Below, piece after piece: positions 41,434 to 56,649 of a stretch of 58,933 nucleotides of DNA. Location of the stretch: assembly GCA_035570295.1 (NCBI GenBank), contig DATMMA010000109.1, forward strand, positions 1 to 58,933, written 5' to 3'. The translations under genes were made by a program, and so were the position numbers. This DNA is from Streptosporangiaceae bacterium. Its GTDB lineage: Bacteria; Actinomycetota; Actinomycetes; Streptosporangiales; Streptosporangiaceae. The first letter of the stretch is position 1. Each line of letters opens with the position of its first letter. The notes beneath the pieces are model-generated. The model saw only the letters and a list, made by a program, of their open reading frames with translations, searched no databases and was not told the origin of the DNA.

Positions 41434-42102
41434 ATGCGGGTGCTGGTCGCGGAGGACGACAGCGGGCTATGTGACGTGCTTGCCCGCGGCTTGCGAGAGC
41501 ACGACTATGTAGTCGACGCGGTGCGCAACGGCGAGGACGCTGTCAAGTACCTGCGCAGCTACAGCTACGAACTGGTGCTACTCGACTGGCGGATGCCGGG
41601 CATGTCCGGCCTGGATGTCGTGCGCTGGATGCGGCGGCACAACCAGCCAGCCCCGGTTTTGATGCTGACAGCCCGCGATGCGCCAGCTGACCGGGTTACC
41701 GGGCTCGACGAGGGGGCTGACGACTACCTGGTCAAGCCCTTCGACTTCGATGAACTGCTGGCGCGGATGCGCGCCCTGCTGCGCCGCCCGCCGGCGGTGC
41801 AGCAGCCCGAGCTTGCCGTCGGCGACCTGCGCTTCGATCCCGCGACCCGCGAGGTGCGGGTCGGCACCCGCCACCCCGTGCTCACGGCTACCGAGTTCGG
41901 CATCCTCGAGCTGCTGGTACGCAAGTCGCCGGCGGTCGTCCCGCGACGGTCGATCGCGGTGAACGTCTGGGACGACGAGTCGGATGCGATGGGATCCAAC
42001 ACGATTGACGTGCACCTGGCCCGGCTGCGGGCAAAGCTGGCTGGCGGCATGGTCAGGATCGAGACCATTCGCGGCGTCGGCTACCGCCTCGTGGAACGGT
42101 AG
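41434..42102 (+). CDS. OmpR/PhoB-family response regulator
   Basis: MRVLVAEDD, LLDWRMPGMSG (phospho-acceptor Asp), C-terminal winged helix (IETIRGVGYRL). GGAGAG RBS. Confidence 0.9.
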   Translation: MRVLVAEDDSGLCDVLARGLREHDYVVDAVRNGEDAVKYLRSYSYELVLLDWRMPGMSGLDVVRWMRRHNQPAPVLMLTARDAPADRVTGLDEGADDYLVKPFDFDELLARMRALLRRPPAVQQPELAVGDLRFDPATREVRVGTRHPVLTATEFGILELLVRKSPAVVPRRSIAVNVWDDESDAMGSNTIDVHLARLRAKLAGGMVRIETIRGVGYRLVER

Positions 42103-42105
42103 CCG

Positions 42106-43443
42106 ATGCGGCTGCGCGGCGGCGTGCCGCCGAAAGTGGTCCACGCGGCGAAGGTAGCGGCGGCCGCCAGCCTGCTCGTCGGCGTTGTCTACGCGGCCTG
42201 CGTGACCGTACTGGACCAGGTGGTAACGGCCAGGATGATCGAGGCGGTCGATGTCCGGCTGGCCGAACGGCTGTCTGACGTGCGCGAGATCGGCCTGCAG
42301 GCGCCGGATGAGGACGACATCGATTCAACTCCGGTCTACGTGTGGCAAGTGGGGCGGTCCGCACCGGTCTCGCGGGCCAGCCCCGGCGCGCCGGCGCTGC
42401 CGTCCAGCGTCCGCCTCCGACCGGATGGCGAGAAAACCGCCCGGCTGTCCGGAGCGCCGTTCCGGTTCGTCGCAGGCTCTGAAAACGGCGCCGGGCTGAT
42501 TGCCGGCCAGAGCTTGCAGAGCGTGGATCACCTGACCGCACTGCTGCGGGATGGCGAAGCTCTTGCGGCTCCTGTCCTGCTGCTGTCCGTGTTCGCCGGC
42601 GCGCTCACCATCGGGCTGCGTGCACTCTCCCCGGTCGAGCAGTCACGCCGGCGCCAGCTCGAGTTCACCGCGGACGCGTCGCACGAGTTGCGCTCGCCGC
42701 TGAGCGTGATCAGCGCGGAGACCAGCATCGCTCTCAGCGCCCCCCGGCAGCCGGCCGAATACCGTGCCGCACTGACCCGGATCGAAGACGAGAGCACCCG
42801 GCTGTGCAAGATCGTCGAAGACCTGCTCTGGCTGGCCCGGTTTGACTCGGCGCCGCCGCAGCCTCGTGAGGAGCCGCTGGACCTCGCGACCATCGCCGGC
42901 CAGTGCGCTGAGCGGTTCCGTGCGGTCGGCACCACCAGGGAGTTCGATATCGAGGTAGTGACGAGCGGATCCGCGCCAGCCTGGATTAGCGCCCCGCCGG
43001 AGTGGATCGACCGGCTGACCGGAGTGCTGGTCGACAACGCCTGCCGGTACGCCGGGGCAGGCGGGACAGTCCGGATCACCGTCGCGCATCGCGGCAGCAG
43101 AGTGACGATGACCGTCGAGGACACCGGGCCGGGCATCCCCGCTGAGCTGCGACCCTGGCTATTCGACCGGTTTCGCAGGTCAACCGAGCAGGGCGGCAGT
43201 GCGGGCCTTGGCCTCGCGATCGCCGACTCGATCGTCCGCTCGACCGACGGGCAGTGGCGGCTCGGCGATTCTGAGCTGGGCGGAGCGCTGTTCGAGGTGT
43301 CCTGGCGCCGCGTCGCCGTCCGGCAGCACGGCACTGTGCCCACGAAGCCAGGGTCGCCAGCCAGGCCGGAAGCGCCAGCCGGGCCGGAAACGCCAGTCAA
43401 TCCAGATCACGCTGGACGGTCCAGCCAGCCGACGGCGATGTAG
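42106..43443 (+). CDS. Sensor histidine kinase
   Basis: Two TM segments, H-box FTADASHELRSPLS, N/G boxes (DNACRYAG, DTGPGIP, GLGLAI). Starts 4 nt after the regulator stop. Confidence 0.85.
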   Translation: MRLRGGVPPKVVHAAKVAAAASLLVGVVYAACVTVLDQVVTARMIEAVDVRLAERLSDVREIGLQAPDEDDIDSTPVYVWQVGRSAPVSRASPGAPALPSSVRLRPDGEKTARLSGAPFRFVAGSENGAGLIAGQSLQSVDHLTALLRDGEALAAPVLLLSVFAGALTIGLRALSPVEQSRRRQLEFTADASHELRSPLSVISAETSIALSAPRQPAEYRAALTRIEDESTRLCKIVEDLLWLARFDSAPPQPREEPLDLATIAGQCAERFRAVGTTREFDIEVVTSGSAPAWISAPPEWIDRLTGVLVDNACRYAGAGGTVRITVAHRGSRVTMTVEDTGPGIPAELRPWLFDRFRRSTEQGGSAGLGLAIADSIVRSTDGQWRLGDSELGGALFEVSWRRVAVRQHGTVPTKPGSPARPEAPAGPETPVNPDHAGRSSQPTAM

Positions 43444-44756
43444 GCGGTCACGGCCGCCACGATGATCGGCGGCAGGAGGGCGACACCATTGCCGTACAGC
43501 AGCAGGGTCGCCACCAGCACGGCGGTCATCGGCAGCCTGAGCACTGCCGCGATCATCGCTCCGATGCCCATGGCGATTCCGGCTACCGCCGGCATGCCCG
43601 GCAGATGAGAGAGCGCGACACCCGCCACCGCGCCGACGAACACGGCGGGAAAGATCGGCCCGCCGCGAAAGCTGCTCAGCGATACGCCGTACGCGACCGC
43701 CTTGCAGGCCAGCAACAGCACGAGCACGCCAAGGCCGAAGCTGGCGCGATGGCTGACGAAGGGGCCGAGCTGGCTCTGGCCGGAAAACAGCACGTTAGCT
43801 GCTGATTTGCCGGTCAGCTGACTGAACAGTACGGCGAATCCGGCGACCACCAGTCCGGCCACCGGCGTCAGGACGAGCCGGCGCGGCGCCACTGCGTCCC
43901 GCAGCAGCAGCGCGAACCTCCGGATTGCCTCCGCCAGGACCGCCGCTGCCAGCCCGACCGGCAGGGCCAGGCCAATCTCGGCCAGGCTGGGCCGGGCGAA
44001 GTGCGGCAGGCCGGGGAGAGCGAGTGAGAACGTGCCAAGGCCGCTAAAGCGGCCGAGACCGGTGAACACTAGCGCCCCGATGCCGGACGCCAGCAGGCCG
44101 GGAACGAGAACTAGCTCCATCGTCGCGCCGCCGAGCCCGGCCGCTTCCATCAGCAGGAACGCGCCCGCAAGAGGCGACCCGAGTAGCGTGCTGACAGCCG
44201 CGAAACTGCCGGCCGCGGCGATGACCACCTTGGCCCGGTCGCTACCGCCTGCCCGCGCCCTGGCCACCGCCCAGGCGGCCACGCCACCACCGAGCGCGAG
44301 CAGCGGGGCCTCCGGGCCGAGCACGGCGCCAATGCTCAGCGTGCCCAGCGCCGCCAGGAACACGCCGGGAATGTCTCTGGGTGCCACCACACCGCCGGCC
44401 TTGAAGCCCTCGGCCGGCTCATGACCGGCCGTTCCCGGCAAGTACCTGATGACGAGAGCAACGGCAAGGCCCCCGATCAACAACAGCGGGAACGCCCACC
44501 AAAGTGGTGGCCGCGCCAGCCCGACGCCGGACGGCAGGCTGGTGAAAAGCAACCCTTGCAGCAGGCTGACCAGCGCCAGGAAGCCCCAGGCGAGCGCAGA
44601 GACGGGCACGCCGATGATCGCGGCCAGCAGCAGCAGCCGCAGGTAGGCGGGGCTGCGCATCAGCGCGACAGCATCGGCGGGCGTGCTCAGCTGCGATCTC
44701 CCCGGCGGCAGGCGCGATCGGACCGCCGGGATCCGGCGGTTTATCCCGACGTTCAA
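43407..44756 (-). CDS. ClC-family chloride channel / H+-Cl- antiporter
   Basis: 10+ TM segments, with GPEAPLLALGGG (GxEGP-type) and GGPIFPAVFVGA selectivity motifs. Its 3' end overlaps the kinase gene by 37 nt (convergent). Confidence 0.85.
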   Translation of the reverse strand: MNVGINRRIPAVRSRLPPGRSQLSTPADAVALMRSPAYLRLLLLAAIIGVPVSALAWGFLALVSLLQGLLFTSLPSGVGLARPPLWWAFPLLLIGGLAVALVIRYLPGTAGHEPAEGFKAGGVVAPRDIPGVFLAALGTLSIGAVLGPEAPLLALGGGVAAWAVARARAGGSDRAKVVIAAAGSFAAVSTLLGSPLAGAFLLMEAAGLGGATMELVLVPGLLASGIGALVFTGLGRFSGLGTFSLALPGLPHFARPSLAEIGLALPVGLAAAVLAEAIRRFALLLRDAVAPRRLVLTPVAGLVVAGFAVLFSQLTGKSAANVLFSGQSQLGPFVSHRASFGLGVLVLLLACKAVAYGVSLSSFRGGPIFPAVFVGAVAGVALSHLPGMPAVAGIAMGIGAMIAAVLRLPMTAVLVATLLLYGNGVALLPPIIVAAVTAYIAVGWLDRPA

Positions 44757-44871
44757 CTGCCCGCCCGGGGGTCAGTTCACTCCCCCGCCGCTCCGGCAGG
44801 CCTGTCCCGTCACATCGGTCGCCTGCCGGGTGTCAGTCTGGATGAGACCGGGGGGCGAAGGAAGTGAACAG

Positions 44872-45855
44872 ATGAGCGAGAACGACCTGGGCGGCTTGCT
44901 GGCGGGCGACAGCAACGGAGCGCCGGACGGCGGAGAGCGCGACTGGCTTGCGGATCGGTTCGAGGAGCAGCGGGCACACCTGCACGCGGTTGCCTACCGG
45001 ATGCTGGGCTCGCTCGACGACGCCGACGACGCCGTGCAGGACACCTGGCTGCGGGTGAGCCGTGCGGGCGCAGACGACGTGGCGAACCTCGGCGGCTGGC
45101 TGACTACGATCGTTTCCAGGATTTGCCTGAACATGCTGCGCTCCCGCAACGGCAGGCGCGAGGAGTCGCTGGAGGTGCGCCTTCCCGACCCGATCGTCAG
45201 CCCGGCGGCGAAATCGCAGCCGGAGGATGAGGCATTGCTGGCCGACTCGGTCGGCCTTGCACTGCTGGTCGTACTCGACGCCCTGACACCGGCCGAGCGA
45301 CTGGCGTTCGTGTTGCATGACATGTTCGGGCTGCCGTTCGAGGAGATCGCCCCGGTGGTCGGCCGGACTGCCGCGGCCGCACGGCAACTTGCCAGCAGAG
45401 CCCGGCGCCGGGTCTCCGGCGCCGGGCTCGCCGCGCCAGACCCCGACCTGGCCCGCCAGCGGGAGGTGGTCGATGCGTTCTTCGCAGCTGCCCGCGACGG
45501 TGACTTCGACGCCCTGCTGAAGGTGCTCCATCCCGGCGTTGTCCTGCGCATCGATGCGGGTGGCTTCCACGCTGCGGCGTCTATGGAGGTCCGCGGTGCG
45601 CCGGCCGTCGCGCGGCAGGCGCTCAGCGGCCTGACGAGCCTGCTGCAGGTCGTTCGCCTGACCCACGTCGTCGTCAACGGCGCCGCCGGAGTGGTCGCTT
45701 CCCGGCGCGACCTTCCCGTGACCGTCATTGGCTTCACCATTGCCGACGGCAAGATCGTCGAGATGGACTCGATCGCCGACCCCGAGCGCGTCCGCAGGAT
45801 CACGGCGGGTTCTGGCGTGGGGCCCGACGCGCCAGATTCCCCGCGCGAAGAATGA
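44872..45855 (+). CDS. ECF sigma-70 factor with a C-terminal SnoaL-like extension (SigJ / ECF41-like)
   Basis: Region 2 is HLHAVAYRMLGSLDDADDAVQDTWLR. Region 4 is LTPAERLAFVLHDMFGLPFEEIAPVVGRTAAAARQLASRARRR. A roughly 120-aa extra C-terminal domain follows. ATG at 44872 after GGCGAAGGAAG. Confidence 0.85.
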   Translation: MSENDLGGLLAGDSNGAPDGGERDWLADRFEEQRAHLHAVAYRMLGSLDDADDAVQDTWLRVSRAGADDVANLGGWLTTIVSRICLNMLRSRNGRREESLEVRLPDPIVSPAAKSQPEDEALLADSVGLALLVVLDALTPAERLAFVLHDMFGLPFEEIAPVVGRTAAAARQLASRARRRVSGAGLAAPDPDLARQREVVDAFFAAARDGDFDALLKVLHPGVVLRIDAGGFHAAASMEVRGAPAVARQALSGLTSLLQVVRLTHVVVNGAAGVVASRRDLPVTVIGFTIADGKIVEMDSIADPERVRRITAGSGVGPDAPDSPREE

Positions 45856-45918
45856 GGGACGGCCCGTCATCCCGGATGAAATCAGCGGTTCGCGAGAGAT
45901 CGGCGCGGGGGGGCGGCC

Positions 45919-46452
45919 TTAGGTTCGCTGCTCGCCCTGCCGGCTCGTTGCGGAGCGCAGGTGCCGGCGAGCCCTGCGCACTCGCCGCCAGCGGCCGACG
46001 GCCGCGATCAGGAGCGCCGCCAGAGCAGGCGCCAGCCATGCGATGTGCGGAAGCTCACCGGCACCAACGAGCGCGAAGACAGGCAATTCAGCAAGGATTG
46101 GCAGGACGACCAGGAGTATCTCGCCGGCCCCGGCGCGCGCCACCGGAACGGCTTGAGCAGGAACACTGGCAGTATTGATGACGCCGGCATAGCCCATGGA
46201 ACCAACGCCGCCAATATTGACTAGCTCCAATTTCGGTGGCGGCGCATCGTCCTTGTGCAGCAATGGACCGACGTCTGGCTCCTGCGCCAATTGCATTGAC
46301 TGGTAGACCGCGGGATCCGTAAGACTGATGCTGTCCCTGGACGTGGTTCCGTCGTCCTTGACCAGGTCCGTCGGCACGCCCTGGGAGAACCACCGGTACT
46401 CGTGCCGGTTAGCCGGATCCTCGTACCAGCCTTCCTTGACAAGCTCGGCCAT
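45919..46452 (-). CDS. Hypothetical membrane protein with an N-terminal DUF2510-like motif
   Basis: GWYEDPANRHEYRWFSQG resembles the GWYxDP...RYWDG repeat. C-terminal TM segments and a basic tail. The ATG at 46452 has a GAGGGGA RBS. The longer ORF-track start overlaps pstB. Confidence 0.5.
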   Translation of the reverse strand: MAELVKEGWYEDPANRHEYRWFSQGVPTDLVKDDGTTSRDSISLTDPAVYQSMQLAQEPDVGPLLHKDDAPPPKLELVNIGGVGSMGYAGVINTASVPAQAVPVARAGAGEILLVVLPILAELPVFALVGAGELPHIAWLAPALAALLIAAVGRWRRVRRARRHLRSATSRQGEQRT

Positions 46453-46510
46453 TCTGATCCCCTCTGGCGGGCCCGAGATGTGCCGGTCGCCGAGCGAACT
46501 ATAACCCCGA

Positions 46511-47338
46511 TCAACCAAATCGGCCATGCACGTAATCAGCAGTGCGGGGATCGACCGGACTCTCGAACAACTGGCGCGTCGCCCCGGATTCCACGATGGC
46601 GCCGGGCGTGTTCTCCGCTGCCAGGAAGAAGGCGCAGTTGTCGGAGACGCGCTGCGCCTGCTGCATGTTGTGCGTCACGATCACGATCGTGACCTGGTTC
46701 TCGAGCTCGCCGATCGTCTCCTCGATCCGCCTGGTGGAGGTCGGGTCAAGCGCCGAGCACGGCTCGTCCATCAGCAACACGTCCGGCGAGACGGCCAGCG
46801 CCCTGGCGATGCACAAGCGCTGCTGCTGCCCGCCGGACAGCGCTCCGCCAGGGGACTTGAGCCGTTGCTGCACTTCGCGCCACAGGCCAGCCCGGCGCAA
46901 GCTCGTCTCGACCAGACTGTCGGTGTCGGGGACTTTGATGCCAGACAGCTTCAGGCCGCTGGCCACGTTCTCGTAGATGGACATGGCCGGGAAAGGATTC
47001 GGTTTCTGGAACACCATCCCGATCCGGCGGCGTATGTCAGCTGGCCTGACGGCAGGCTGATAGATGTCCTGGTCGCCGAGCCTTACCTGGCCGGCCAGCT
47101 GCGCACCCTTCACCATTTCGTGCATGCGGTTCAATACCCGCAGGAACGTGGACTTGCCACAGCCGGATGGCCCGATGAGCGCGGTTACCTTGCCGGGCTC
47201 CATCCGCAGCGACACGCGCTCCAGCACCTTGTGGCCGCTGAACCAGGCGGACACGTTGCGCGCGTCGAGCCCCACCAATCCAGGGTCACGGGTCAGTGTC
47301 TCGGACGGGTAACTGTCAGTCACGGCGATATCGGTCAC
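46511..47338 (-). CDS. pstB: Phosphate ABC transporter ATP-binding protein PstB
   Basis: Walker A GPSGCGKST, signature LSGGQQQRLCIARA, Walker B LLMDEPCSALD, and the PstB-typical C-terminal TADYVHGRFG. Confidence 0.95.
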   Translation of the reverse strand: MTDIAVTDSYPSETLTRDPGLVGLDARNVSAWFSGHKVLERVSLRMEPGKVTALIGPSGCGKSTFLRVLNRMHEMVKGAQLAGQVRLGDQDIYQPAVRPADIRRRIGMVFQKPNPFPAMSIYENVASGLKLSGIKVPDTDSLVETSLRRAGLWREVQQRLKSPGGALSGGQQQRLCIARALAVSPDVLLMDEPCSALDPTSTRRIEETIGELENQVTIVIVTHNMQQAQRVSDNCAFFLAAENTPGAIVESGATRQLFESPVDPRTADYVHGRFG

Positions 47339-47367
47339 AGCAGGACTCCGGCCTGTTCGCAGGGTTC

Positions 47368-47395
47368 GGGTTCGGCAGTTCGGGTTCGGCAGTTA
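47368..47395. repeat. 14-bp tandem duplication at the stop codon of the sortase-like gene
   Basis: GGGTTCGGCAGTTC / GGGTTCGGCAGTTA, preceded by a partial GGGTTC. On the minus strand, CTGCCGAACC also ends the coding sequence (LPNL). Confidence 0.7.
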
Positions 47396-48262
47396 GTAGA
47401 GGTTCGGCAGCAGGCCGGCCAGGTTCTGGTACAGGTTCCACAGGATCGCGAGCACAGCGGGCACGATGACCAGGTACGCCGGCCAGCCAGACCAGCGGGC
47501 GGCGGCTGCTGCGCCGCCGAGGCTGGCTAGCACCAGCGCCAGGCCCCACAGCATGGCCAGCACGAGGGCGCCGCTGTCGCCGGCCATCGCCTGCTCAGCC
47601 GGACCGATGGCAGGCATCTGCACCGGCCCGTTGTGCGCGGTCGTCATCAGGTCCGCGTCGATCTCCAGGTAGTAGGCCGGGATTCCGGCCGAGCTCGACG
47701 TCAGCAGAACGAGGCGGTTCAGGTTGCTGTCGGTGACCGGGTGCTGGCTGTCACCGATGGCGACCACCTTGTATACCGACTTGCCCTGCTGGGTATACGT
47801 CGTGATCTCCTCGCCGGGGCGCAGCTCACTCAGGCGGGCGAACGGAGCGCCGAAGGTGGCGCGCCTGCCATAGATCACCGACAACCCGAGCTGGCCCGGG
47901 AGCGGAGTGTTTCGCAGGTGACCGGGGCCGAGGTCAAGCTGCGCGGCGGTCGTGCCCTCTACCACGATGACGTTGCGCAAGCCGATGCTTGCTGCGTCGA
48001 GTATGGCCACCGGCTGACCCAGGCCGGTCGGCCCGAGCGGCCCCAGATCCTGGCCGAGCTTGCCGGCGAACGTCGAGTACAGCCTGCTCTGGACAGCAGC
48101 TTCCTGAACCCGCGAGACACCGAACAGGTAGGCGAGGAATCCGCCGGTGAGCAGGCCCAGGAGGAGGAGGCTCGCACCGACGCAACGGGCAACCATGCTG
48201 CCGCGCGGCACGCTGGCCGGCTCGCCGGCAGCTCCGACCGGCTGCCGGGTCAGCACGGTCAC
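47393..48262 (-). CDS. Sortase-fold membrane protein lacking the catalytic His/Cys/Arg (pseudo-sortase)
   Basis: N-terminal TM, then VAILDAASIGLRNVIVVEGT...GPGHLRNTPLPGQLGLSVIYGRRATFGAPFARLSELRPGEEITTYT...LVLLTSSS. This aligns by eye with class E sortases (PGxxGNxxxxGHR...F..L..L.PGD...TLxTC). The GHR site reads GRR (AGG codon, 47864-47866). The TC site reads TS (TCG codon, 47696-47698). There are two extra C-terminal TM segments. The GTG at 48262 overlaps the upstream stop (GTGA), and an ATG at 48196 is an alternative start. Confidence 0.7.
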   Translation of the reverse strand: MTVLTRQPVGAAGEPASVPRGSMVARCVGASLLLLGLLTGGFLAYLFGVSRVQEAAVQSRLYSTFAGKLGQDLGPLGPTGLGQPVAILDAASIGLRNVIVVEGTTAAQLDLGPGHLRNTPLPGQLGLSVIYGRRATFGAPFARLSELRPGEEITTYTQQGKSVYKVVAIGDSQHPVTDSNLNRLVLLTSSSAGIPAYYLEIDADLMTTAHNGPVQMPAIGPAEQAMAGDSGALVLAMLWGLALVLASLGGAAAAARWSGWPAYLVIVPAVLAILWNLYQNLAGLLPNLY

Positions 48263-49851
48263 CGCGGCACCCGGCTGCGGCGCCGGCGGAGCAATGCGTA
48301 GACGGCCGGTGGCACCGCGACGACGACCAGGATCTCCACCGCGGTCAGCGTCCCGAGCACGGTGCTGTTGCCGCTGGTCGAGGCAACGTTGACCACCGTG
48401 CCGGTCACCGGACCCTCCGGCGGCGCGCCGGACGCCGCCGCCCCCGGCGCGCCCGCCACCGGTACTGCCGCGGTCACGCCCGCACTGGCCCCGGCGCTGG
48501 GGCTTGTGCTGGTCTGCTGGGCGGCGGTGGCTGACACCGCCTTGCCGTGCACGACAGTGCAGCTCAGCGGCTCGCCAGCCTTGTCGCATGGCGAGGGCTG
48601 CGGCGCGTCCACCAGCACGACGAGCTTGCCGTTCTTAATCGTCGGGTTGTCGCAGCCGCTGGACAGGCTCGGTGTCGGTTCGTGACCAGGGATCTTGCTC
48701 GACTGGGATAGCCCGCCTTCCACCAGGTTGAGCGGAAGCGGTGAGTAGCCAAGCTCGGCGGAGTACTGCTGGCCCGCGCACAGGAAGTAGTCGATGTACG
48801 TGCTGAGCGTCTTGCCGTCGGCCGGGGTGAAGTTAGCCGGGATCTTCGTCCCGGTCCTCGGCACGATCAGGTAGCTGTAGCTGGACAGCGGATAAGACCG
48901 CGGGTCCTTGAACGTGTAGACGTTGTCCAGGCTCTGCTGCAAGTAGTTGACGCTGCTGGGGTCTTCGTCGATCTGCGCCTGGGTCAGCGCGACCGCCACG
49001 TTGGAGGCGGTAGGCAGCACGTAGTAGCCGGCCGGGTTGAGCAGCTTGACCACCGGATAGTGCGAGTTGAGCGCGTAGGCGTACTCGTCGTACCCGATCG
49101 CCCCCTGACCGTAGCTCGCGGTGATATAGGTAGCGACGTTGTTCGATCCGTTCTGCGCGACAGAACCCGGGAACTGCGGGTAGAACTCGGTCTGCCCGCA
49201 GGGTGCCTTGACCCGGCCGTGGCTGACCTTGCTGCAGAACGCGTTCCACTGGGCCGGGAACTCGTGCGCCATCCACCGGGTGAGGAAGTAGGTCGCGCCG
49301 GACCCGTCCGCCCGGATCACCGGGATGATCCGCAAGCTGGGCAGCTGGGTGCCGTAGTCCTTGGTGATCTCCGGGTTGTCCCAGTTCGTGATCTGCCCGG
49401 TGAAGATCTTCATGATCGTCTCACCGGACAGTCTGAGGTTGGTGATCAGCTTGCCGCCGACGTCCAGGTGATACATGAAGGCGGTCCCGCCGGCCGTATC
49501 GGGGACGTAGGAGTAGCCGACCTGCGGGTGCTCGGCACCGCTCGCGTCGAACGGGTCCGTGCCGTTGCGGAACGGCGGATCGGACGCGCCGAAGTCGACT
49601 TGCTGATCCATGTAGTCCGCGCGCCCGGCTGCCGAGCCGTCCGGGTTGAAGTTCACCACGATGCCGTCAGCTCGCAGCGTCTGCGCCCATTGCAGCAATG
49701 CGACCGAACTCCACGATGAGCCAGAACCGCTGATCGCAATGTATTGCTGGTCGCTGCTGGCCAAGGCCGGCGACAGCGGCGCGAGCGATGCGAGTGCCGC
49801 TCCGACGGCGACCGCCAGCGTCCGTCCGGCCTGTGGCATCCGCACCCTCAT
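48259..49851 (-). CDS. pstS: PstS-type phosphate-binding protein with a Sec signal peptide, a Cys-containing linker and a C-terminal TM anchor
   Basis: ISGSGSS, VDFGASDPPF, VIRADGSGATYFLTRWM, GAIGYDEYAYA and ITNWDN match E. coli/M. tuberculosis PstS motifs as I recall them. Signal peptide MRVRMPQAGRTLAVAVGAALASLAPLSPALA. The C-terminus is ...TAVEILVVVAVPPAVYALLRRRRSRVPR. The ATG at 49851 (RBS GGAAGGAAG) overlaps the upstream stop (ATGA). Confidence 0.85.
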   Translation of the reverse strand: MRVRMPQAGRTLAVAVGAALASLAPLSPALASSDQQYIAISGSGSSWSSVALLQWAQTLRADGIVVNFNPDGSAAGRADYMDQQVDFGASDPPFRNGTDPFDASGAEHPQVGYSYVPDTAGGTAFMYHLDVGGKLITNLRLSGETIMKIFTGQITNWDNPEITKDYGTQLPSLRIIPVIRADGSGATYFLTRWMAHEFPAQWNAFCSKVSHGRVKAPCGQTEFYPQFPGSVAQNGSNNVATYITASYGQGAIGYDEYAYALNSHYPVVKLLNPAGYYVLPTASNVAVALTQAQIDEDPSSVNYLQQSLDNVYTFKDPRSYPLSSYSYLIVPRTGTKIPANFTPADGKTLSTYIDYFLCAGQQYSAELGYSPLPLNLVEGGLSQSSKIPGHEPTPSLSSGCDNPTIKNGKLVVLVDAPQPSPCDKAGEPLSCTVVHGKAVSATAAQQTSTSPSAGASAGVTAAVPVAGAPGAAASGAPPEGPVTGTVVNVASTSGNSTVLGTLTAVEILVVVAVPPAVYALLRRRRSRVPR

Positions 49852-52223
49852 GGTTTCTTCCTTCCGAGCGCTGGCAACCACCGGGCAAGGCGTGCTCCGC
49901 GGAGCCGCGTCAGCACTGCGGCGCTGCCCCTGCCAGCGACCAGGGCCGCGGAGCCAGCCGCCACCAGCAGGCAACCTCCGATCAGCAGGACCGGCAGCGC
50001 GTAGCGCGCGAGCCCGGCGGTGGCCGGATTGCTGACCAGGCCCAACCCGATCCGGTGATGGGCCTGACCAGCCGGCCTCGGGGGTGCGGTAGCCGACGCG
50101 GTAGCGCTGGCGCTCGCCGACACCGAACCCGCGGTCCCGTGATGCTTGCTACCGCCGGTCTGATCCAGCACCTCTTGGGCAGCCTTCAGCGTCTGCGTGC
50201 GCATGCTGCTGGTGAGCGGCAGGTAGCCCGGCGCCAGCTGGCCGGGCAGCTGACCGGGCCGCTGTCCGCTGCCCGCCACAAAATCGAGGAACTGCGCGAT
50301 CCTCGCGGCCTTCGTCTTCGAGATCCCGCCAGTCGGGACGAGCGCGTAGATGACCATCGTCAGCGGATAGGCGTTCTTCACCTTGCCGTGGTCGTTCTGC
50401 TGCTGGGTGATGTGGTTCCCGCCGGTTTGCATCTCGCCAAGCGCGGCAGCCATCGTGGCGTTCGTCGGCTCGACGTACTGGCCGGCCGGATTCTCGATCG
50501 CCGCGACCGGCAACTGGAATGCCGCCGCGTCGGCCTCGTCGAGGATGGCGAACAGCGCCCGGTCGCCGGGCGTCTCCGGGCTGAGCTTGTCGTAGTTGCC
50601 CTGCGCGTCCTTCACCCAGTTGGTCGCCGGATACCAGTTATCGACCTGGTACGCGGCCACCGCGCTGAGCGGGAACTGCGGGCTGTAGCGGTGCGCGACA
50701 GGAAGGTACGCGTCCATCGAGTTGAGCGTGTTCGTCGGCAGCTGCATCTTCAGGTAGCTCGTGTTGACGTGCTCGCCCCATGGGTCGAAGGTGCCGTCCG
50801 CGAACGACTTGGCGGCGCTGTTCGCGGCCAGCCACCGGGTGAGCTCATAGGTCATGTCGCTCTCGCCGCCCAGTACGGTCGGTATCTGGTACCCGTCGCC
50901 GACGCTCGCCACGTGCGGATTCAGCTTCTTGAACTCGGGATCGGCGAACAGGCTGATGGGGTCAGCGTCGACGGCGTTGTCGCAGCCGATGCTTTTGGGC
51001 GGCTTGCCGTTGCCGCAGCCCTCCTTGTCGAAGTCATAGGACTGCGTCAGCATCTTCAGCACCAGGCTCGGGTCAAGCCGAAGACGGCCCCGCGGCTGGC
51101 CGGTCCGCGGATTGTCCACCCAGTAAGTGATGGCGACCGACGAGATCGCGATTGGCGCATAGGTATACGGGTGCTTGCCGCTGCCGGTTGCGGGCAGCGT
51201 CGTCAGGGCCACGTCATCGAGCCCGCTCAGGAAGTCCTCCCTGGCCAGCGGCTCACTCTGGGCCGAGTCGTACTGGATATTCAGCGGATTGCTGCTTGCG
51301 CAGAGCGCGGACTGCCACTGGACCATGGCGCGCTCGGCCATCGGTGAGCCGATCACGCTGAAGTCAGGGCTGCGGACCGGGCAGTCGGCCGGGGTCGGCG
51401 AGAAATGCAGCGGCACGATGATCCGGTCGCGCCAGGAACACTGTCCGTACTGACTGCTAAAGGCCACCGAGCCGACGTCCGTCTGGTCGGTGTCCTGGCT
51501 GTGGTCGCCGCACCGGACCGGCGTGTCGAAGATATTGCCGCCCTGGGCCGGGACGATGACCAGCGAGCAGGCCTTGCTGTCCTTGCAGCCGAGTTGCTGA
51601 TCCTCTTCGGCGGTGAGCAACTGGATGGGCGCCTGGCCAGTCCCGTTGCGGCTCGTCGTGGCGTACGCGGTATTCATCGGGCCGTAGGCGCTGAAGGTGC
51701 CCGCCACGCCGCCGTTGTCCGCGCCGAAGCACTGACTCCACTTGGTCGGATGCGTTCCCTGGCACTCAGCGACCATGACCGGGTAATCGGTGCTGTCCGG
51801 CGAGTAGAGCGCGTCGCTGCTCGGGGTGAAACCCTGCCAGCGCACCTCGACGACCTGATTGGTCAGGTGCTTAGCCTGGCTCACGGTGACGTAGCTGTGG
51901 GAGGCGAACAGCCGCTTGCCGGCCGGGTCCCACAACCGCGGCCCCTCGACGACGATGCCGCCTCGCGGCGCGGCAGGTGGTTTGGCCGGGCCCGGCTGCG
52001 CTGGCGTGCTCGGGCTGGCGCTCGGACTGGCACTTGGCAAGGCGGTAGGGGACGTGCTTGGTGACGACGTGCTAGCCGTAGGCGACGGGCTGGGCGATGC
52101 CGCCGATGCTTGCGCGGCCCAGGGCAGCAGCACGCCGGACGCCATGAAGCCAGACGCTACGAAGAGTGCGCCGGCCAGCGCTGCGCGGCGGCGCCAGGCG
52201 GCGGTCATCGGCCTAGTTCGCAT
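49848..52223 (-). CDS. Large secreted protein: signal peptide, Ser/Pro linker, Cys-rich N-domain, degenerate PstS-like (PBP type 2) domain, C-terminal TM anchor
   Basis: The C-terminal half aligns by eye with the downstream PstS paralogue: IENPAGQYVEPTNATMAAAL vs LLNPAGYYVLPTASNVAVAL, AYPLTMVIYALVP vs SYPLSSYSYLIVP, and GGESDMTYELTRWL vs ADGSGATYFLTRWM. The anion-binding residues are replaced. The ATG overlaps the pstA stop (TGATG at 52221-52225). Confidence 0.7.
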   Translation of the reverse strand: MRTRPMTAAWRRRAALAGALFVASGFMASGVLLPWAAQASAASPSPSPTASTSSPSTSPTALPSASPSASPSTPAQPGPAKPPAAPRGGIVVEGPRLWDPAGKRLFASHSYVTVSQAKHLTNQVVEVRWQGFTPSSDALYSPDSTDYPVMVAECQGTHPTKWSQCFGADNGGVAGTFSAYGPMNTAYATTSRNGTGQAPIQLLTAEEDQQLGCKDSKACSLVIVPAQGGNIFDTPVRCGDHSQDTDQTDVGSVAFSSQYGQCSWRDRIIVPLHFSPTPADCPVRSPDFSVIGSPMAERAMVQWQSALCASSNPLNIQYDSAQSEPLAREDFLSGLDDVALTTLPATGSGKHPYTYAPIAISSVAITYWVDNPRTGQPRGRLRLDPSLVLKMLTQSYDFDKEGCGNGKPPKSIGCDNAVDADPISLFADPEFKKLNPHVASVGDGYQIPTVLGGESDMTYELTRWLAANSAAKSFADGTFDPWGEHVNTSYLKMQLPTNTLNSMDAYLPVAHRYSPQFPLSAVAAYQVDNWYPATNWVKDAQGNYDKLSPETPGDRALFAILDEADAAAFQLPVAAIENPAGQYVEPTNATMAAALGEMQTGGNHITQQQNDHGKVKNAYPLTMVIYALVPTGGISKTKAARIAQFLDFVAGSGQRPGQLPGQLAPGYLPLTSSMRTQTLKAAQEVLDQTGGSKHHGTAGSVSASASATASATAPPRPAGQAHHRIGLGLVSNPATAGLARYALPVLLIGGCLLVAAGSAALVAGRGSAAVLTRLRGARLARWLPALGRKKP

Positions 52224-53389
52224 CAGGGTTCCTCTATCCGGGGGGTAGACAGCCGCCGCTGCTGCCGCTTCGACAGCTCACCGGGGGCCTTGCCGCCGAT
52301 CAGCCGCGCAATCGTGAACAGCGCGAGCACGATGAGCATGAGCGCGAGCCCGGCGCCCATGCCGCGGGCGACGTAGTTCGGGTCCTGGCCGAAATCCAGG
52401 ATGCTGGTGATGATGACCGTGGGAAGTGTCGCCTGCCAGCCGTGGAAGGGGTTGGCGACCATCTCGTTGGTGAACCCGGCGGTCAGCAGGACCGGCGCGG
52501 TCTCCCCGATGCCGCGTGCCATGGCAAGTACGACGGTCGTGGTGAGACCGGAGCGGGCCGTCGGCAGGATCACCGTCCATACCGTGCGCCATTGACTGCC
52601 GCCGAGCGCGAATGACGCCTCGCGGAGCGTGCCTGGCACCACCCGCAGCACAACTTCAGCTGCCCTGATGACCGTCGGCAGCATCACGATCGCGACGGCC
52701 AGCGCGGCCGCGAAGCCGCACTCGGGCAGGCCGAGGCTGAGGATGGCCAGGGCGTAGACGAGCAGTCCGGCCACGATCGACGGCAGCGCGGTCATCGCGT
52801 TGACGATGGTCCGGACCGGACGCTCCAGACGCCCGCCGACCTCGGTCAGGAACAGCGCTGCCGCGATGCCAAGCGGGACGGACGCCGCGGTCGCCAGGCC
52901 GATCTGCTCGATCGATCCGACGGCAGCGTGCAGGATGCCGCCTTCGGTCAGCGGGCTGAGTGGTCCGCTGAATGCCATCGTGCTGGTCCAGAAATTCAGG
53001 TGCCTGACCGCTGGCAGGCCCTCGATGGCGCTGTAGCCGATCTGCTCGAAGACGACCGCGCAGGCAAAGATTCCGCCGCTGCTGAACAGCACGGCCATGA
53101 TCTTGTTCCTGACCACCAGCCTGGGCCACGTCAGTCCCGCGACCGCCAGGTAGATCAGCGCGAACAGCAGATACCAGCAGAGCCAGAACCCGAACGCCCC
53201 GCTGAACGGCAAGACCTGCTCGTACAGCAGCCAGGTCAGGCAGAGCGACGCCAGCGCTGACCCGGCAACCGAAAGCACGTCCTCCGGACTGACGCGGCGG
53301 ATCTGCAGAACGTCGTCAACGCCGGCGGAGTCGCCCAAATCGTGCCGCCTGACGCCATCGGAGGTGGTCATCTCCCCGTTCCCGCTCAT
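52223..53389 (-). CDS. pstA: Phosphate ABC transporter permease PstA
   Basis: Polytopic membrane protein with EAA-type loop LREASFALGGSQWRTVWTVILPTARSGL and ARGIGETAPVLLTAGF. Located downstream of pstC. Confidence 0.9.
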   Translation of the reverse strand: MSGNGEMTTSDGVRRHDLGDSAGVDDVLQIRRVSPEDVLSVAGSALASLCLTWLLYEQVLPFSGAFGFWLCWYLLFALIYLAVAGLTWPRLVVRNKIMAVLFSSGGIFACAVVFEQIGYSAIEGLPAVRHLNFWTSTMAFSGPLSPLTEGGILHAAVGSIEQIGLATAASVPLGIAAALFLTEVGGRLERPVRTIVNAMTALPSIVAGLLVYALAILSLGLPECGFAAALAVAIVMLPTVIRAAEVVLRVVPGTLREASFALGGSQWRTVWTVILPTARSGLTTTVVLAMARGIGETAPVLLTAGFTNEMVANPFHGWQATLPTVIITSILDFGQDPNYVARGMGAGLALMLIVLALFTIARLIGGKAPGELSKRQQRRLSTPRIEEP

Positions 53390-53405: not shown

Positions 53406-54422
53406 TCAGTCCGCCGTCGCGGCGCCGGACCGCGACCGGTTGATGATGATCGCGGCTAGCGAATTCACGATCAGCGTGATGGCAAACAGCGCGAGACCAG
53501 CCGCCATCAGTGCGGACAACTGGTCGTACGTGGCGTAATTCCAGGCGCCCGCGATCAGCGCGGCGATCGAGTTGCCGCCGCTTTGCAGGATGCGCCAGTT
53601 GAGAGCCGGAGTCGGGCTGATGATCAGCAGCACGGCGATGGTCTCCCCGAGCGCCCGGCCGATGCCGAGCATGGCCGCTCCGACAACTCCGCCGCGACCG
53701 AACGGGAGAACAACTGTTCTGATCATGCCCCAGCGGGTTGAGCCCAGCGCGTAGGCAGCCTCACGCTCGCTCGCGGGCGCCTGCGAGAAGACCTCGCGGC
53801 ATAGCGACGTGATGATGGGGATGGCCATCAGCGAGACCACCATGCCGGCGATGGCAGGCGATCCGACGAAGGTCGACGCGCTTTGCGGGACGGTGATGCG
53901 GAACGGCGGGAACCACCCGATGTGGTGCGACAGCCACGCCATTGTCCCGATGACCCTCGGCATCAAGAAGGCCCGACCCCAGACCGCGTAGATGATGCTC
54001 GGGATCGCGGCCATCAGGTCGATGACGGCGATGAGGAAGCGCCGCAGCCGGCCGGGCGCGTATTCCGCGATGAAGATCGCTGCCGTCAGCGCGACCGGGA
54101 TGGCAATCACCGAAGCGATAGCGGCAATGATGATCGTGTCCGGCAGCATGCCGCCGATGCCGAACTGGTTGCCCACGAACACCCAGCTCTGCTTGGTGAA
54201 GAAGCTAAGGCCGTCGGCCCGCAACGCCCACATGCCGCGGTAGATCAGGAAGACCAGGATCATCGCCGTGATGAGGAAGCTTGACAACCCTGCTGCCCGC
54301 AGCACGCTGCGGAAGATCAGGTCGCCGCGCGAGCCGCGCGACGTAATCGTCCGGGGAACGTCGTCGCCGACCGATGCTGATGCTGGCGGGTTAGGGGCTG
54401 CAGGGCTAATTGCAACGGCCAT
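53406..54422 (-). CDS. pstC: Phosphate ABC transporter permease PstC
   Basis: EREAAYALGSTRWGMIRTVVLPFGRGG and GRALGETIAVLLII, with 6 TM segments. Confidence 0.9.
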   Translation of the reverse strand: MAVAISPAAPNPPASASVGDDVPRTITSRGSRGDLIFRSVLRAAGLSSFLITAMILVFLIYRGMWALRADGLSFFTKQSWVFVGNQFGIGGMLPDTIIIAAIASVIAIPVALTAAIFIAEYAPGRLRRFLIAVIDLMAAIPSIIYAVWGRAFLMPRVIGTMAWLSHHIGWFPPFRITVPQSASTFVGSPAIAGMVVSLMAIPIITSLCREVFSQAPASEREAAYALGSTRWGMIRTVVLPFGRGGVVGAAMLGIGRALGETIAVLLIISPTPALNWRILQSGGNSIAALIAGAWNYATYDQLSALMAAGLALFAITLIVNSLAAIIINRSRSGAATAD

Positions 54423-54608: not shown

Positions 54609-55223
54609 TCAGCTCGTGGTCTGCGTCTGGTAGGTGGTGCGGAACGTGCCGATCTGCTGACCCGCCTTGAAGTAGGTGGTGTGCAGTCCGTCGTTCAGGT
54701 AACGCGCGCCCGCCTTGGTGACGAACAGGGCGCTCGCAGTGAAAGTCTGAGTGGCTGGCGGGCCTGCGTTGGACGATCCCGACAGCGCGCCGCCCACGCT
54801 CACAAGCGAAACATGGCGGGTACCCGCAACCCCGCCGATCGTCCCTGCGTGGTAGCTGAACGCCAAGCCGGTAAGGGTGACCGACCGGCGCGTGCCGCCG
54901 TCGGTGAAAACCAGTCCGCCGGCCAGGTCGACACTGCCGGACGTGAGGATGTAGTTGCCGTCACCGCCCGACACCTGGAAGGCGATGATCTCGCGATTCC
55001 GGCCGGCTGAAGCACCGCCCGGAGCCTCGGGCAACACCACGATCCCGGCCCTGGCCAGCCCGTTGACCGTGGCGTGGTTGACGGCGATGCTGGCCGTGCC
55101 GCCGATGTCTTCGATGCCAGCCAGAGCTGGCGCGGCCGCCCCGCCCGCCAGAGCTAGCAACGCTGCCGCCAGGCACGAGCCGCCCGCTGCGACCGCAGCC
55201 GCTCGTGTCACCTTGTTGCGCAT
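54609..55223 (-). CDS. Secreted hypothetical protein (Gly/Thr/Ala-rich, beta-rich) inserted between the PstS-like gene and pstC
   Basis: Signal peptide MRNKVTRAAAVAAGGSCLAAALLALAGGAAAPALA. The mature protein is about 170 aa with no motif I can assign. GC3 is consistent with coding. Confidence 0.6.
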   Translation of the reverse strand: MRNKVTRAAAVAAGGSCLAAALLALAGGAAAPALAGIEDIGGTASIAVNHATVNGLARAGIVVLPEAPGGASAGRNREIIAFQVSGGDGNYILTSGSVDLAGGLVFTDGGTRRSVTLTGLAFSYHAGTIGGVAGTRHVSLVSVGGALSGSSNAGPPATQTFTASALFVTKAGARYLNDGLHTTYFKAGQQIGTFRTTYQTQTTS

Positions 55224-55231
55224 GTGGATTC

Positions 55232-55312
55232 CTTGTTCTTACTCGGCATGTTCTTGCTCGGGATGTCATTGCTCGGGATGTCATTGCTCGCGATGTCATT
55301 GCTCGCGATGAC
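55232..55312. repeat. 15-bp head-to-tail tandem repeat array (about 5.3 units), starting 9 nt upstream of the 204-aa gene start codon
   Basis: Units on the plus strand: CTTGTTCTTACTCGG, CATGTTCTTGCTCGG, GATGTCATTGCTCGG, GATGTCATTGCTCGC, GATGTCATTGCTCGC, then partial GATGACAAG. The units become more degenerate toward the gene start. Confidence 0.9.
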
Positions 55313-55433: not shown

Positions 55434-56594
55434 TCAGGAGCCGAAGCCGCAAAGCTTCGTGGTGAGGAAGCCGTAATTGACGATGGCCTGCTGCGCTTCC
55501 TTGTTCGCGCAGAACCAGCCCTTGACCTTCGAGGTCGCCGATGCGAAGAACGGCTCGAGCCGGTTCGGGATGTGATCGCCGTTGGTGGACTTGGTGGCAT
55601 ACCAGACAAGGTCGTACAGCGGCCGCAGGAACGTCTCGCCCAGCTTCGTGTTGATCTTGGTCTTGGTGCCGGTGCCGACGGTGGCTTGCTGGATGCCGCC
55701 AGTTCCGAGGTTCAGCGCGCCGAGCTTCAGGGTTCCGTGCTCGTCACAGCCAAACGCGTTCTGGCTCTTGGTCGGCTTCCTGCCGCACTTGGCGTCGTGG
55801 TGGACCTGCGCGATGTACTTGCCCACCGAGTAGGGCGCGATGACCTCAGGAGCGGTCGTCGCATTCGTGAACACCGAGGCGGTGCCCTCGTTCTGCTGCA
55901 CGACGGTCGCGCAGGTCGGGAACGAGGAAATGCCCAGCGCCTTGAGCCAGAACTTGGTCACTCCGGTAGTGGACGCCGGCAGCGCGACGACGATCGGAGC
56001 ATCGGCGCCGCCGACGTCGCTCCATTTCGCGTCGGTGCAACTGAAGATGTCGTGCAGTTGCGACGGCGTCAGGTTCGCCGGCGCGTCCGTGGTGGAGTTG
56101 ACCGCGTAAGTCTCCGCGTCCTCGGCCAGGCGCACGTACAGGTCACCGTTCGGGGTCTTGTTCAGCGGGTCGCTCGAGCGGTAGCTAGCCTCGCGGGCGA
56201 AGTCGATGCAGTCATAGCCACGCGTCTTGACGTTCGCCTCGAAGGCGGTCAGGCCGAGTCCCGAGCCATCTGGCCGTGCCACAGACTTGCAACCTTGCTT
56301 AGTCACGATCGTGCTGGTCAGGTTGTTCGGGTTCTTCGGCGGCACCGCGTCCCAGCTGTAGATCCACGGGTGACTCTTGTTGTGCACTTTCTTGTGCGCC
56401 GCGTCGTAGTCAGCCGCCAGCTGATCGACCAAGAAGTCGTCGGTGTCGGAGCCCACGCCGACGACGTCATAGTTCCGCGGCACGATGGTTTTGCCATGGC
56501 TGGTGGGCGGGTCGGCCAGGGCCGGCGCCGCCGCCAGCGCGGTCACGGTGACCGATGCGGCGGCGATGGCAACCAGGCTCATGAGCTTGCGCAC
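55434..56594 (-). CDS. PBP-like-2 (PstS-family) substrate-binding protein, divergent, at the canonical pstS position
   Basis: Signal peptide VRKLMSLVAIAAASVTVTALAAAPALA, VGVGSDT, RPDGSGLG, and LTPSQLHDIFSCTDAKWSDVGG are typical of PBP_like_2 proteins. The GTG at 56594 lies 4 nt after AGGAGGA, and an ATG at 56582 is an alternative. Several Cys pairs. Confidence 0.75.
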   Translation of the reverse strand: MRKLMSLVAIAAASVTVTALAAAPALADPPTSHGKTIVPRNYDVVGVGSDTDDFLVDQLAADYDAAHKKVHNKSHPWIYSWDAVPPKNPNNLTSTIVTKQGCKSVARPDGSGLGLTAFEANVKTRGYDCIDFAREASYRSSDPLNKTPNGDLYVRLAEDAETYAVNSTTDAPANLTPSQLHDIFSCTDAKWSDVGGADAPIVVALPASTTGVTKFWLKALGISSFPTCATVVQQNEGTASVFTNATTAPEVIAPYSVGKYIAQVHHDAKCGRKPTKSQNAFGCDEHGTLKLGALNLGTGGIQQATVGTGTKTKINTKLGETFLRPLYDLVWYATKSTNGDHIPNRLEPFFASATSKVKGWFCANKEAQQAIVNYGFLTTKLCGFGS

Positions 56595-56649
56595 ACGTCC
56601 TCCTGCGCTTAGTCGAAGCCTGCCGGCGGGACTGAACACCGCAGGCTGG

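Follow-up and report, generated by a model that had tools for sequence, protein, structure and literature searches.

Gene organization of the locus

We analyzed positions 1 to 58,933 of contig DATMMA010000109.1 from a Streptosporangiaceae bacterium (assembly GCA_035570295.1); we refer to this whole stretch of 58,933 nucleotides (nt) as the window. Our subject is a cluster of nine genes on its minus strand that combines the genes of a Pst-type phosphate importer with a gene for a sortase homolog. In minus-strand order, they encode a periplasmic-binding-protein-like (PBP-like) protein of 401 amino acids (aa), a 204-aa protein, PstC, PstA, a 791-aa protein (Big), a 530-aa PstS paralog (PstS-ext), the 289-aa sortase homolog (the pseudo-sortase), PstB, and a 202-aa protein. 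Related loci carry the labels L001, L002, and so on.

A reading of this DNA made from the sequence only had noticed three extra genes between pstA and pstB, and our analysis bears out both the gene order and the open reading frames (ORFs). Its reads of the junctions were also exact: pstA overlaps the gene for Big by 1 nt (TGATG), the gene for Big overlaps that for PstS-ext by 4 nt (ATGA), PstS-ext overlaps the sortase-like gene by 4 nt (GTGA), and a spacer of 54 nt precedes pstB. The GTG start codon of pstB has a GGAG 9 nt to its 5' side. Such tight stop/start overlaps fit the co-translation that this reading had suggested. Several of the junctions have identical stop/start overlaps in relatives (L001, L011, and L013-L015). 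The order itself also recurs in relatives, at eight of 10 genome loci and almost all of 80 metagenome loci, so the arrangement is neither a chance nor an assembly feature. The GC content of the module (67.9%) is close to that of the window (68.2%), so there is no sign of foreign DNA, and no repeats or mobility genes are present at the locus.

The permease, the ATPase, and the 530-aa PstS paralog

PstC (53406..54422, minus strand) is the only one of the four Pst proteins that passes the NCBIfam cutoff for its equivalog family (TIGR02138, 240.1 bits versus a cutoff of 196.45). PstA (52223..53389, minus strand) narrowly misses its cutoff (TIGR00974, 183.8 bits versus 193.45), and the match spans only residues 96-364. 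The N-terminal extension of about 95 aa contains two extra hydrophobic segments, at aa 38-56 and aa 68-93. The PstA orthologs of this system have 341-457 aa, versus 302 aa for a canonical PstA that is encoded in L014. PstB (46511..47338, minus strand, with a GTG start) is another narrow miss (TIGR00972, 335.1 bits versus 343.2).

PstS-ext (48259..49851, minus strand) matches PBP_like_2 from Pfam (E = 3e-34) and is 28% identical to PstS from E. coli (E = 9e-30), but it scores 159 bits against TIGR00975 (PstS), which is under the cutoff of 205. It has a signal peptide, a PstS domain, an extension that contains cysteines, a low-complexity linker, and a C-terminal anchor region (aa ~470-530, nt 48262-48444), in which a transmembrane helix with a PP pair is followed by an RRRR tail. 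The phosphate ligands of the E. coli protein align with S46 (T10 in E. coli), S73 (S38), D91 (D56), R180 (R135), D182 (D137), S184 (S139), G185 (G140), and A186 (T141). We count seven of the eight ligands as kept, the exception being the replacement of T141 by A186. These alignments indicate that PstS-ext is a true relative of PstS whose phosphate pocket is intact.

The 791-aa protein

Big (49848..52223, minus strand) does not belong to any Pfam family and has just a weak match to the C-lobe of PstS. It begins with a signal peptide and a linker that is rich in Ser, Pro, and Ala. These are followed by a beta-sandwich (aa ~85-280, nt 51384-51971), which in the predicted structure looks like an immunoglobulin-like (Ig-like) domain, and then by a PstS-fold domain with a remodeled pocket (aa ~285-690, nt 50154-51371). 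Another low-complexity linker leads to the C-terminal anchor region (aa ~733-791, nt 49851-50027), where a juxtamembrane motif that is conserved precedes a transmembrane helix and a basic tail.

Sequence comparisons say little about the fold: a search of the PDB with the sequence of Big gave nothing useful, and hhalign aligned it to E. coli PstS only in the C-lobe and with low probability. The fold assignment therefore comes from an AlphaFold 2 (AF2) model and Foldseek. The model has a predicted local distance difference test (pLDDT) score of 70, and its best matches in Foldseek are structures of PstS (E ~1e-14), with TM-scores of 0.69-0.77, normalized to the target. The matches include an entry for E. 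coli PstSCAB from cryogenic electron microscopy (9k3x).

The canonical ligands are replaced in the pocket of Big (T10 by P294, D56 by T342, R135 by L451, and D137 by G453), and in none of the distant Big orthologs that we examined are they restored. Thus, the earlier description of the 791-aa and 530-aa proteins as two PstS-fold proteins with C-terminal transmembrane anchors agrees with their folds and hydrophobic segments, with the refinement that the phosphate pocket is present in the 530-aa protein and absent from the 791-aa protein. We found 312 homologs of Big in total. Ten cysteines are invariant in the family, which fits an extracytoplasmic location.

The 289-aa sortase homolog

The sortase-like gene (47393..48262, minus strand) begins with GTG. 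This start fits the length of the homologs (287-289 aa, n = 120). The protein matches the Sortase family of Pfam (E = 5e-13), with the match taking in just 82 of the 125 model positions, and its score against the class E sortase model NF033747 (62.8 bits) is far under the cutoff of 160. It has three hydrophobic segments: an N-terminal transmembrane helix precedes the sortase beta-barrel (aa ~78-215, nt 47618-48031), and the other two form a C-terminal transmembrane hairpin that ends in LLPNLY. The AF2 model has a pLDDT of 84. All of the top 50 matches in Foldseek are sortases (TM-scores of 0.76 with 4d70 and 0.73 with 5go6).

The sequence-only reading had called this protein a catalytically dead sortase homolog. 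Alignment to the sortase SrtD (4d70) and comparison with sets of homologs support this: the catalytic His is replaced by R133 (47864-47866, minus strand), the Cys of the TLxTC motif by S189 (47696-47698), and the Arg by A196 (47675-47677). We identified 443 homologs. Among 121 close ones, R133 is invariant, while positions 189 and 196 are each A, T, or S. To sample more broadly, we searched 1.84 billion representative sequences with HMMER; at E < 1e-30, there were 148 clusters at 50% identity, full-length and including the C-terminal helices. None of the roughly 125 full-length sequences that we aligned (from 150 representatives, clustered at 50%) has a Cys at the catalytic site. Neither do any of 55 members of the broad family, of which 54 have Arg and one has Lys in place of the His; this set includes a "class E sortase" from Phytohabitans suffuscus and a "sortase" from Plantactinospora. 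Altogether, the catalytic Cys was absent across about 295 relatives.

Other parts of the protein are well conserved. VVEGT, GPGH, LPGQxG, and FGAPF are invariant or nearly so among pseudo-sortases, as are several residues of the hairpin: the adjoining R256 and W257 (R-W), which separate the final two helices, P268, and the terminal LLPNL. The loss of the triad everywhere we looked, while the motifs of the barrel and the hairpin were kept, indicates selection for a non-catalytic role. On this sequence evidence, we take the 289-aa protein to be a pseudo-sortase under purifying selection. Public records label it "class E sortase" or "sortase A", and label Big "hypothetical protein".

We also note that the spacer of 54 nt that separates the pseudo-sortase gene from pstB starts with two tandem copies of CTGCCGAACCCGAA (window 47365-47392). 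These copies echo the final codons of the pseudo-sortase (CTGCCGAACCTC, encoding the conserved LPNL end), which looks like a duplication of the 3' end of the gene.

Two database proteins appear to join the pseudo-sortase to a receptor. P0322 (1211 aa) is a plausible fusion of Big and the pseudo-sortase in which the transmembrane helix of Big is kept; we return to it below. We rejected P0342 (980 aa), with a PstS-like or Big-like N-terminal part followed by a pseudo-sortase, as evidence of fusion because its topology is implausible.

C-terminal anchors of the two receptors

At the C-terminus of both Big and PstS-ext, a motif is followed by a transmembrane helix and then a basic tail, which is the layout of sortase substrates. 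In the window, the motifs read NPATAG (Big) and PVTG (PstS-ext), and both resemble the LPXTG and LAXTG signals. In 120 homologs of Big, the conserved tail reads [S/N]-[A/P]-x-T-x-G-x-x-R-Y-x-x-P-x-L-L-I, followed by a hydrophobic stretch and then Arg/Lys. R740 and L746 are invariant, and the linker before them is unconserved. The tail of PstS-ext has the signature [VI][TS]G-x-VV-N-[VL], about 12 further residues, a transmembrane helix with PP, and L-RRRR; the PP is present at 61 of 63 loci.

Both anchors are thus conserved in a sequence-specific way, unlike their linkers. The alignments firmly indicate that this conservation goes beyond mere hydrophobicity, which suggests contacts within or at the membrane. 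The resemblance to a sorting signal is another matter. Distant orthologs retain at most a G-x-x-(R/A)-(Y/W/F)-x-x-P element of the tail motif, and in some of them nothing of it is left, so we rejected an LPXTG-like sorting motif as a feature of the whole family. We treat the apparent resemblance of the tails to sorting signals as a lead and not as a result.

As a candidate contact, we considered whether a Glu in the transmembrane helix of PstS-ext might pair with a conserved Arg of the pseudo-sortase. Only 18 of 63 tails have this Glu, and the two residues are predicted to lie at opposite faces of the membrane, so we rejected the pairing.

Conservation of the gene set

We examined gene neighborhoods at three depths. 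Scanning a genome collection with Big alone gave 10 loci, all from close relatives. Eight of these have the order (PBP-like)-(204 aa)-pstC-pstA-791-530-pseudo-sortase-pstB, or as much of that order as fits on the contig. A further locus, L011, with a Big that is 53% identical, also keeps the order of the window. Most homologs of Big and of the pseudo-sortase come from soil metagenomes, and the named ones are from metagenome-assembled genomes (MAGs) of "Streptosporangiaceae bacterium".

The other two of the 10 loci have a pair of genes, one for a PBP-like protein of about 400 aa and one for a 791-like protein with the same C-terminal tail (L007 8272-12133 and L008 8235-12100). Neither pst genes nor a pseudo-sortase lie within 10 kb of these pairs, whose neighbors are LarC-like, LUD-domain, and DsbA-like genes. 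This suggests that the PBP-like protein and Big make up a sub-module that can occur without the transporter.

A profile of the pseudo-sortase identified 80 metagenome loci (43-99% identity). Counting only loci with enough flanking sequence, we found pstB directly downstream of the pseudo-sortase at 49 of 53 loci and a 530-type PstS directly upstream at 48 of 50; a 791-type gene lies upstream at 27 of 30 loci, and pstA at 17 of 18.

More distant clusters were reached with a divergent pseudo-sortase profile (over 3,000 proteins at E ≤ 1e-10) and look-ups of their gene context. Cultured Plantactinospora and Phytohabitans encode some of these proteins, and MAGs of Micromonosporaceae and Jatrophihabitantaceae encode others. 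We studied five clusters (L012-L016), from Plantactinospora, Phytohabitans, a Jatrophihabitantaceae MAG, and two other MAGs. The order in L012 and L013 is pstC-pstA-PstS (553-560 aa)-Big (865-872 aa)-two to five unknown ORFs-pseudo-sortase-pstB, while in L014-L016 it is pstB-pstC-pstA-(~230 aa)-PstS-Big (916-940 aa)-pseudo-sortase. In L014 and L015, the stop codon of the gene for Big overlaps the start of the pseudo-sortase gene. All six proteins from the distant clusters are mutual best matches to those of the window, with identities of 62-72% for PstB, 48-50% for PstC (L013-L016), 43-49% for PstA, 42-47% for PstS and 26-31% for Big (both across L012-L016), and 37-41% for the pseudo-sortase. 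Co-occurrence with pstA and pstB across Actinobacteria, which the sequence-only reading had named as a check on its proposal, therefore holds among the genome, metagenome, and distant loci.

The MAG that contains L014 also has a separate, canonical pstSCAB with an OmpR-type regulator (L014 12220-17028), a few kb from the cluster that is linked to the pseudo-sortase. Its proteins all score above the NCBIfam cutoffs (PstS 293.6, PstC 285, PstA 286.8, and PstB 383.7). Because the six genes are orthologous as a set, with a permuted order, and because L014 has a canonical pstSCAB besides, we are dealing with a distinct paralogous system and not with an insertion. Its core consists of PstB, PstC, PstA with two extra N-terminal helices, an anchored 530-aa PstS, an anchored Big, and a pseudo-sortase with three transmembrane segments. 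The window contains one gene-order variant of this old and self-contained Pst-type system.

Secreted proteins with Ig-like Big_3_5 domains flank distant clusters (L012 7262-8011 and 12131-13354; L013 12248-16191; L015 12549-19801; L016 858-2303). No such flanking proteins are present in the window's version. In some MAGs from long reads (L002, L006, L009, and L011), the 791-like, PstS-like, pseudo-sortase, or pstB genes are split into two frames. These splits are most likely indels in the assemblies rather than pseudogenes, because loci of similar identity from short reads are intact.

Accessory and flanking genes

The gene for the 401-aa PBP-like protein (55434..56639, minus strand) encodes a signal peptide, which is the single hydrophobic segment of the protein, and no C-terminal anchor. 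The protein matches PBP_like_2 from Pfam (E = 1.9e-9), with weak matches to structures of the PstS family around the hinge, and the canonical Arg-x-x-x-Ser-Gly-Thr reads L-P-A-S-T-T-G-V. Homologs lie upstream of pstC in L001-L003, L005, L009, L011, and many metagenome loci, and more distant ones are found in L012, L013, and L015. It is a further recurring component, often added to the core set.

The 204-aa secreted protein (54609..55223, minus strand) has a signal peptide and no match in Pfam or NCBIfam. Its gene is present in L001, L002, L009, L011, L018, L061, L067, L090, and L096 and not in all loci, so it is a variable accessory. The spacer between this gene and that for the PBP-like protein contains about five tandem repeats of a 15-nt unit (minus strand CATCGCGAGCAATGA and variants; window 55234-55310), which could be binding sites for a regulator or a product of slippage.

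The gene for the 202-aa membrane protein (45919..46527, minus strand) shares 17 nt with the 3' end of pstB, and the transcript probably ends with this gene. The protein has C-terminal hydrophobic segments, and only the closest relatives (L017-L020) encode it at this place. Its N-terminal motif GWYEDP...RWF is typical of DUF2510, but there was no match in Pfam or NCBIfam. A terminator-like hairpin directly 3' of this gene (45856..45873, minus strand; a consensus match only) may mark the end of the operon. The number of terminator-like sites in the region is not above that in shuffled sequences, and neither the promoter scan nor the terminator scan exceeded its shuffled controls.

Just downstream (window 41434-45855) are genes for an OmpR-type regulator and a histidine kinase, a CLC-type channel, and an extracytoplasmic function (ECF) sigma factor with a C-terminal SnoaL-like domain. 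We considered the regulator and kinase (41434-43443) as candidates for PhoPR and rejected them: their best match in NCBIfam is RppA/RppB, below the cutoff. Further along (38309-41405), three successive genes encode a UbiA prenyltransferase, a flavin adenine dinucleotide (FAD)-binding oxidase that has an ALO domain, and a short-chain dehydrogenase; they resemble the DprE1/DprE2-type genes of Actinobacteria for arabinan precursors (decaprenyl-phosphoryl-ribose).

Proposed mechanism and alternatives

We think it somewhat probable, given the conserved sequences and gene neighborhoods, that this is a paralogous Pst-type importer whose tethered receptors are organized by a non-catalytic membrane adaptor derived from a sortase. 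The genes would be cotranscribed and translationally coupled as one transcript. PstS-ext, tethered to the membrane through a long flexible linker and its C-terminal helix, would deliver phosphate to PstCA, with PstB powering the transport. The pseudo-sortase would descend from a class E-like sortase that once processed C-terminal signals of this kind, and it would now bind the C-termini of the receptors without cleaving them. As a membrane adaptor, it could keep the two receptors, and perhaps a site of wall precursors, assembled beside the permease; the additional pair of PstA helices may help to hold the receptors there. Big might be an outer scaffold or a receptor for another ligand, and the secreted 401-aa protein might have a similar part. 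The sequence-only reading had likewise suggested that the module could be an accessory surface scaffold, or a capture apparatus from which the Pst permease is fed. More tentatively, and with considerable doubt on our part, the dead sortase may be a dedicated subunit of the importer that reads the degenerate, sorting-signal-like tails of two receptors on wall-spanning linkers, so that the whole would be a harvesting complex with multiple receptors.

Several observations weigh against this proposal. In L007 and L008, the neighborhood of the genes for the PBP-like protein and Big contains no transporter, so Big may not depend on the permease for its function. At four of the 53 metagenome loci, the pseudo-sortase gene does not adjoin pstB. 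The LPXTG-like look of the tails is confined to the window's own clade, which makes recognition of a sorting motif by the pseudo-sortase less likely. The fusion in P0322 may be a frameshift artifact, and we do not use it as strong evidence. A scan for PHO boxes (GTTCAYYYRSG with at most one mismatch) gave 30 matches versus 22 ± 5 expected, with none in the upstream regions. Finally, PstA, PstB, and PstS-ext are slightly to clearly below the equivalog cutoffs of NCBIfam, so the substrate could differ.

This last point leads to an alternative that we regard as unlikely but worth taking seriously, namely that the same system imports something other than orthophosphate, or several ligands, with the 530-aa, 791-aa, and 401-aa proteins as alternative receptors for phosphorus or oxyanion compounds. 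Besides the equivalog scores, the canonical pstSCAB alongside in L014 argues for a specialized role. In the window's clade, Big has invariant pocket residues of its own (P294, T341, T342, G453, S455, and D456), and the 401-aa protein likewise lacks the canonical Arg. However, the pocket residues of Big are not conserved in its distant orthologs, which argues against a single defined ligand; PstS-ext keeps seven of the eight phosphate ligands, and PstC passes its equivalog cutoff. The presence of a paralog beside a canonical pst would also suit a complex that is mainly a sensor or an envelope-organizing device, which signals the status of phosphate or of the wall, in the way that Pst systems signal via PhoU/PhoR, and whose pseudo-sortase docks to lipid II or to places where the wall is made. 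Lipid II is the second substrate of real sortases, so a non-catalytic sortase fold fits this idea, as do the Big_3_5 proteins that flank the distant clusters and the lack of upstream PHO boxes. We consider it quite improbable: a complete set of importer genes with an intact phosphate pocket is kept under selection, no regulator is consistently linked to it, and the nearby two-component pair is not PhoPR according to NCBIfam.

If the sortase homolog were still an enzyme that used other residues, such as a Ser nucleophile, then it could anchor Big and PstS-ext covalently to the wall. Both of these neighbors end like sorting signals, S191 is invariant in close homologs of the pseudo-sortase, and the window has a Ser at the Cys position. 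But all three catalytic positions are replaced, and the Cys equivalent varies among A, T, and S, so there is no conserved nucleophile. Furthermore, all 55 members of the broad family have Arg or Lys in place of the His, and the motif before the helix is unconserved across the broad family. We find continued catalysis very hard to credit. Harder still to believe is that the three genes entered an ordinary pstSCAB recently, by a mobile element or a rearrangement, and have no functional connection to it. The sequence-only reading had described the module as "spliced into the pst operon", though not as a random insertion, in view of an order that departs from the textbook pstSCAB. That description fails, because pstC, pstA, and pstB here form one conserved set together with the accessory genes: distant families have the set with its own pstCAB and in a permuted order, and L014 has a canonical pstSCAB separately. 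The uniform GC content, the lack of repeats and mobility genes, and the overlapping junctions also argue against insertion. We retain the importer with a sortase-derived adaptor as our working model.

Significance

To our knowledge, no such Pst system has been described in print, and it is apparently new; this statement draws on curated family libraries, public annotations, and what we know ourselves. No model in Pfam or NCBIfam covers the Big family or separates pseudo-sortases from true sortases, and both families are currently mis-annotated in public records. Here, a textbook phosphate importer of high affinity and a textbook family of surface-anchoring enzymes are joined in a gene set that is widespread among soil Actinomycetota, with at least about 148 clusters of pseudo-sortases at 50% identity and over 300 homologs of Big. 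If the adaptor idea is true, then it would be the first function for a sortase pseudoenzyme, as well as a model for how thick-walled bacteria organize tethered binding proteins around an ABC permease. A harvesting complex, if it exists, would add a new means by which monoderm bacteria tether their binding proteins. The system is open to experiments in carriers that are in culture, among them Phytohabitans suffuscus (BCB84282-BCB84288) and Plantactinospora.

Comparison with known systems

Like the canonical PstSCAB of E. coli, or that of M. tuberculosis with its several PstS paralogs, the system in the window has PstC and PstA permeases, PstB, and a receptor with the PstS fold. It differs in that the receptor gene is not the first of the operon; the receptors are on C-terminal transmembrane helices with long linkers, whereas canonical ones have a lipid anchor or move freely in the periplasm; PstA carries an additional pair of helices; the phosphate pocket is missing from two more proteins with the PstS fold; and a pseudo-sortase is an obligatory neighbor. 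Judging from these sequences, the system probably works like a Pst importer, yet it falls outside the strict definition by three of the four equivalog models and by its operon architecture.

The best matches of the pseudo-sortase, in both sequence and structure, are class E and class D sortases. With the class E enzymes (SrtE1 and SrtE2 of Streptomyces, which recognize an LAXTG signal), it has in common the beta-barrel fold, the N-terminal membrane anchor, and the GPGH and LPGxxG motifs. The pseudo-sortase family differs from them in lacking the His, Cys, and Arg and in having an added C-terminal hairpin of two membrane helices. Inactive rhomboids (iRhoms) are another case of dead relatives of enzymes, here of enzymes whose substrates are anchored in the membrane; they are retained under selection, and they plausibly bind their clients rather than cutting them. 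Their fold and biology are unrelated to those of the pseudo-sortase, for which client binding is putative.

Two other systems combine an ABC importer with surface proteins. The "anchored repeat" ABC cassette of Actinobacteria described by Haft (TIGR03769-03773) has a metal-type, TroA-like transporter and an LPXTG-anchored repeat protein. Like the system in the window, it couples an actinobacterial ABC importer to a surface-anchored accessory protein, but none of the nine proteins in the window matches the TIGR03769-03773 models at E ≤ 0.01. The other is the isd locus of S. aureus (isdC-D-E-F-srtB-G), which reportedly has a sortase gene within the operon of an ABC importer, adjoining the gene for its NPQTN substrate IsdC. 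The receptors, IsdC among them, relay heme to the binding protein of the transporter, and SrtB is an active enzyme that attaches IsdC to the wall. In the window, too, a gene of the sortase family lies inside an importer operon beside surface receptors, and the tail of Big reads NPATAG. In contrast to isd, this sortase is dead and the receptors would stay anchored in the membrane; the class of ligand, the fold of the receptors, and the family of the transporter all differ, and a relay between receptors is putative. The isd locus is the closest analogy in function that we know of.

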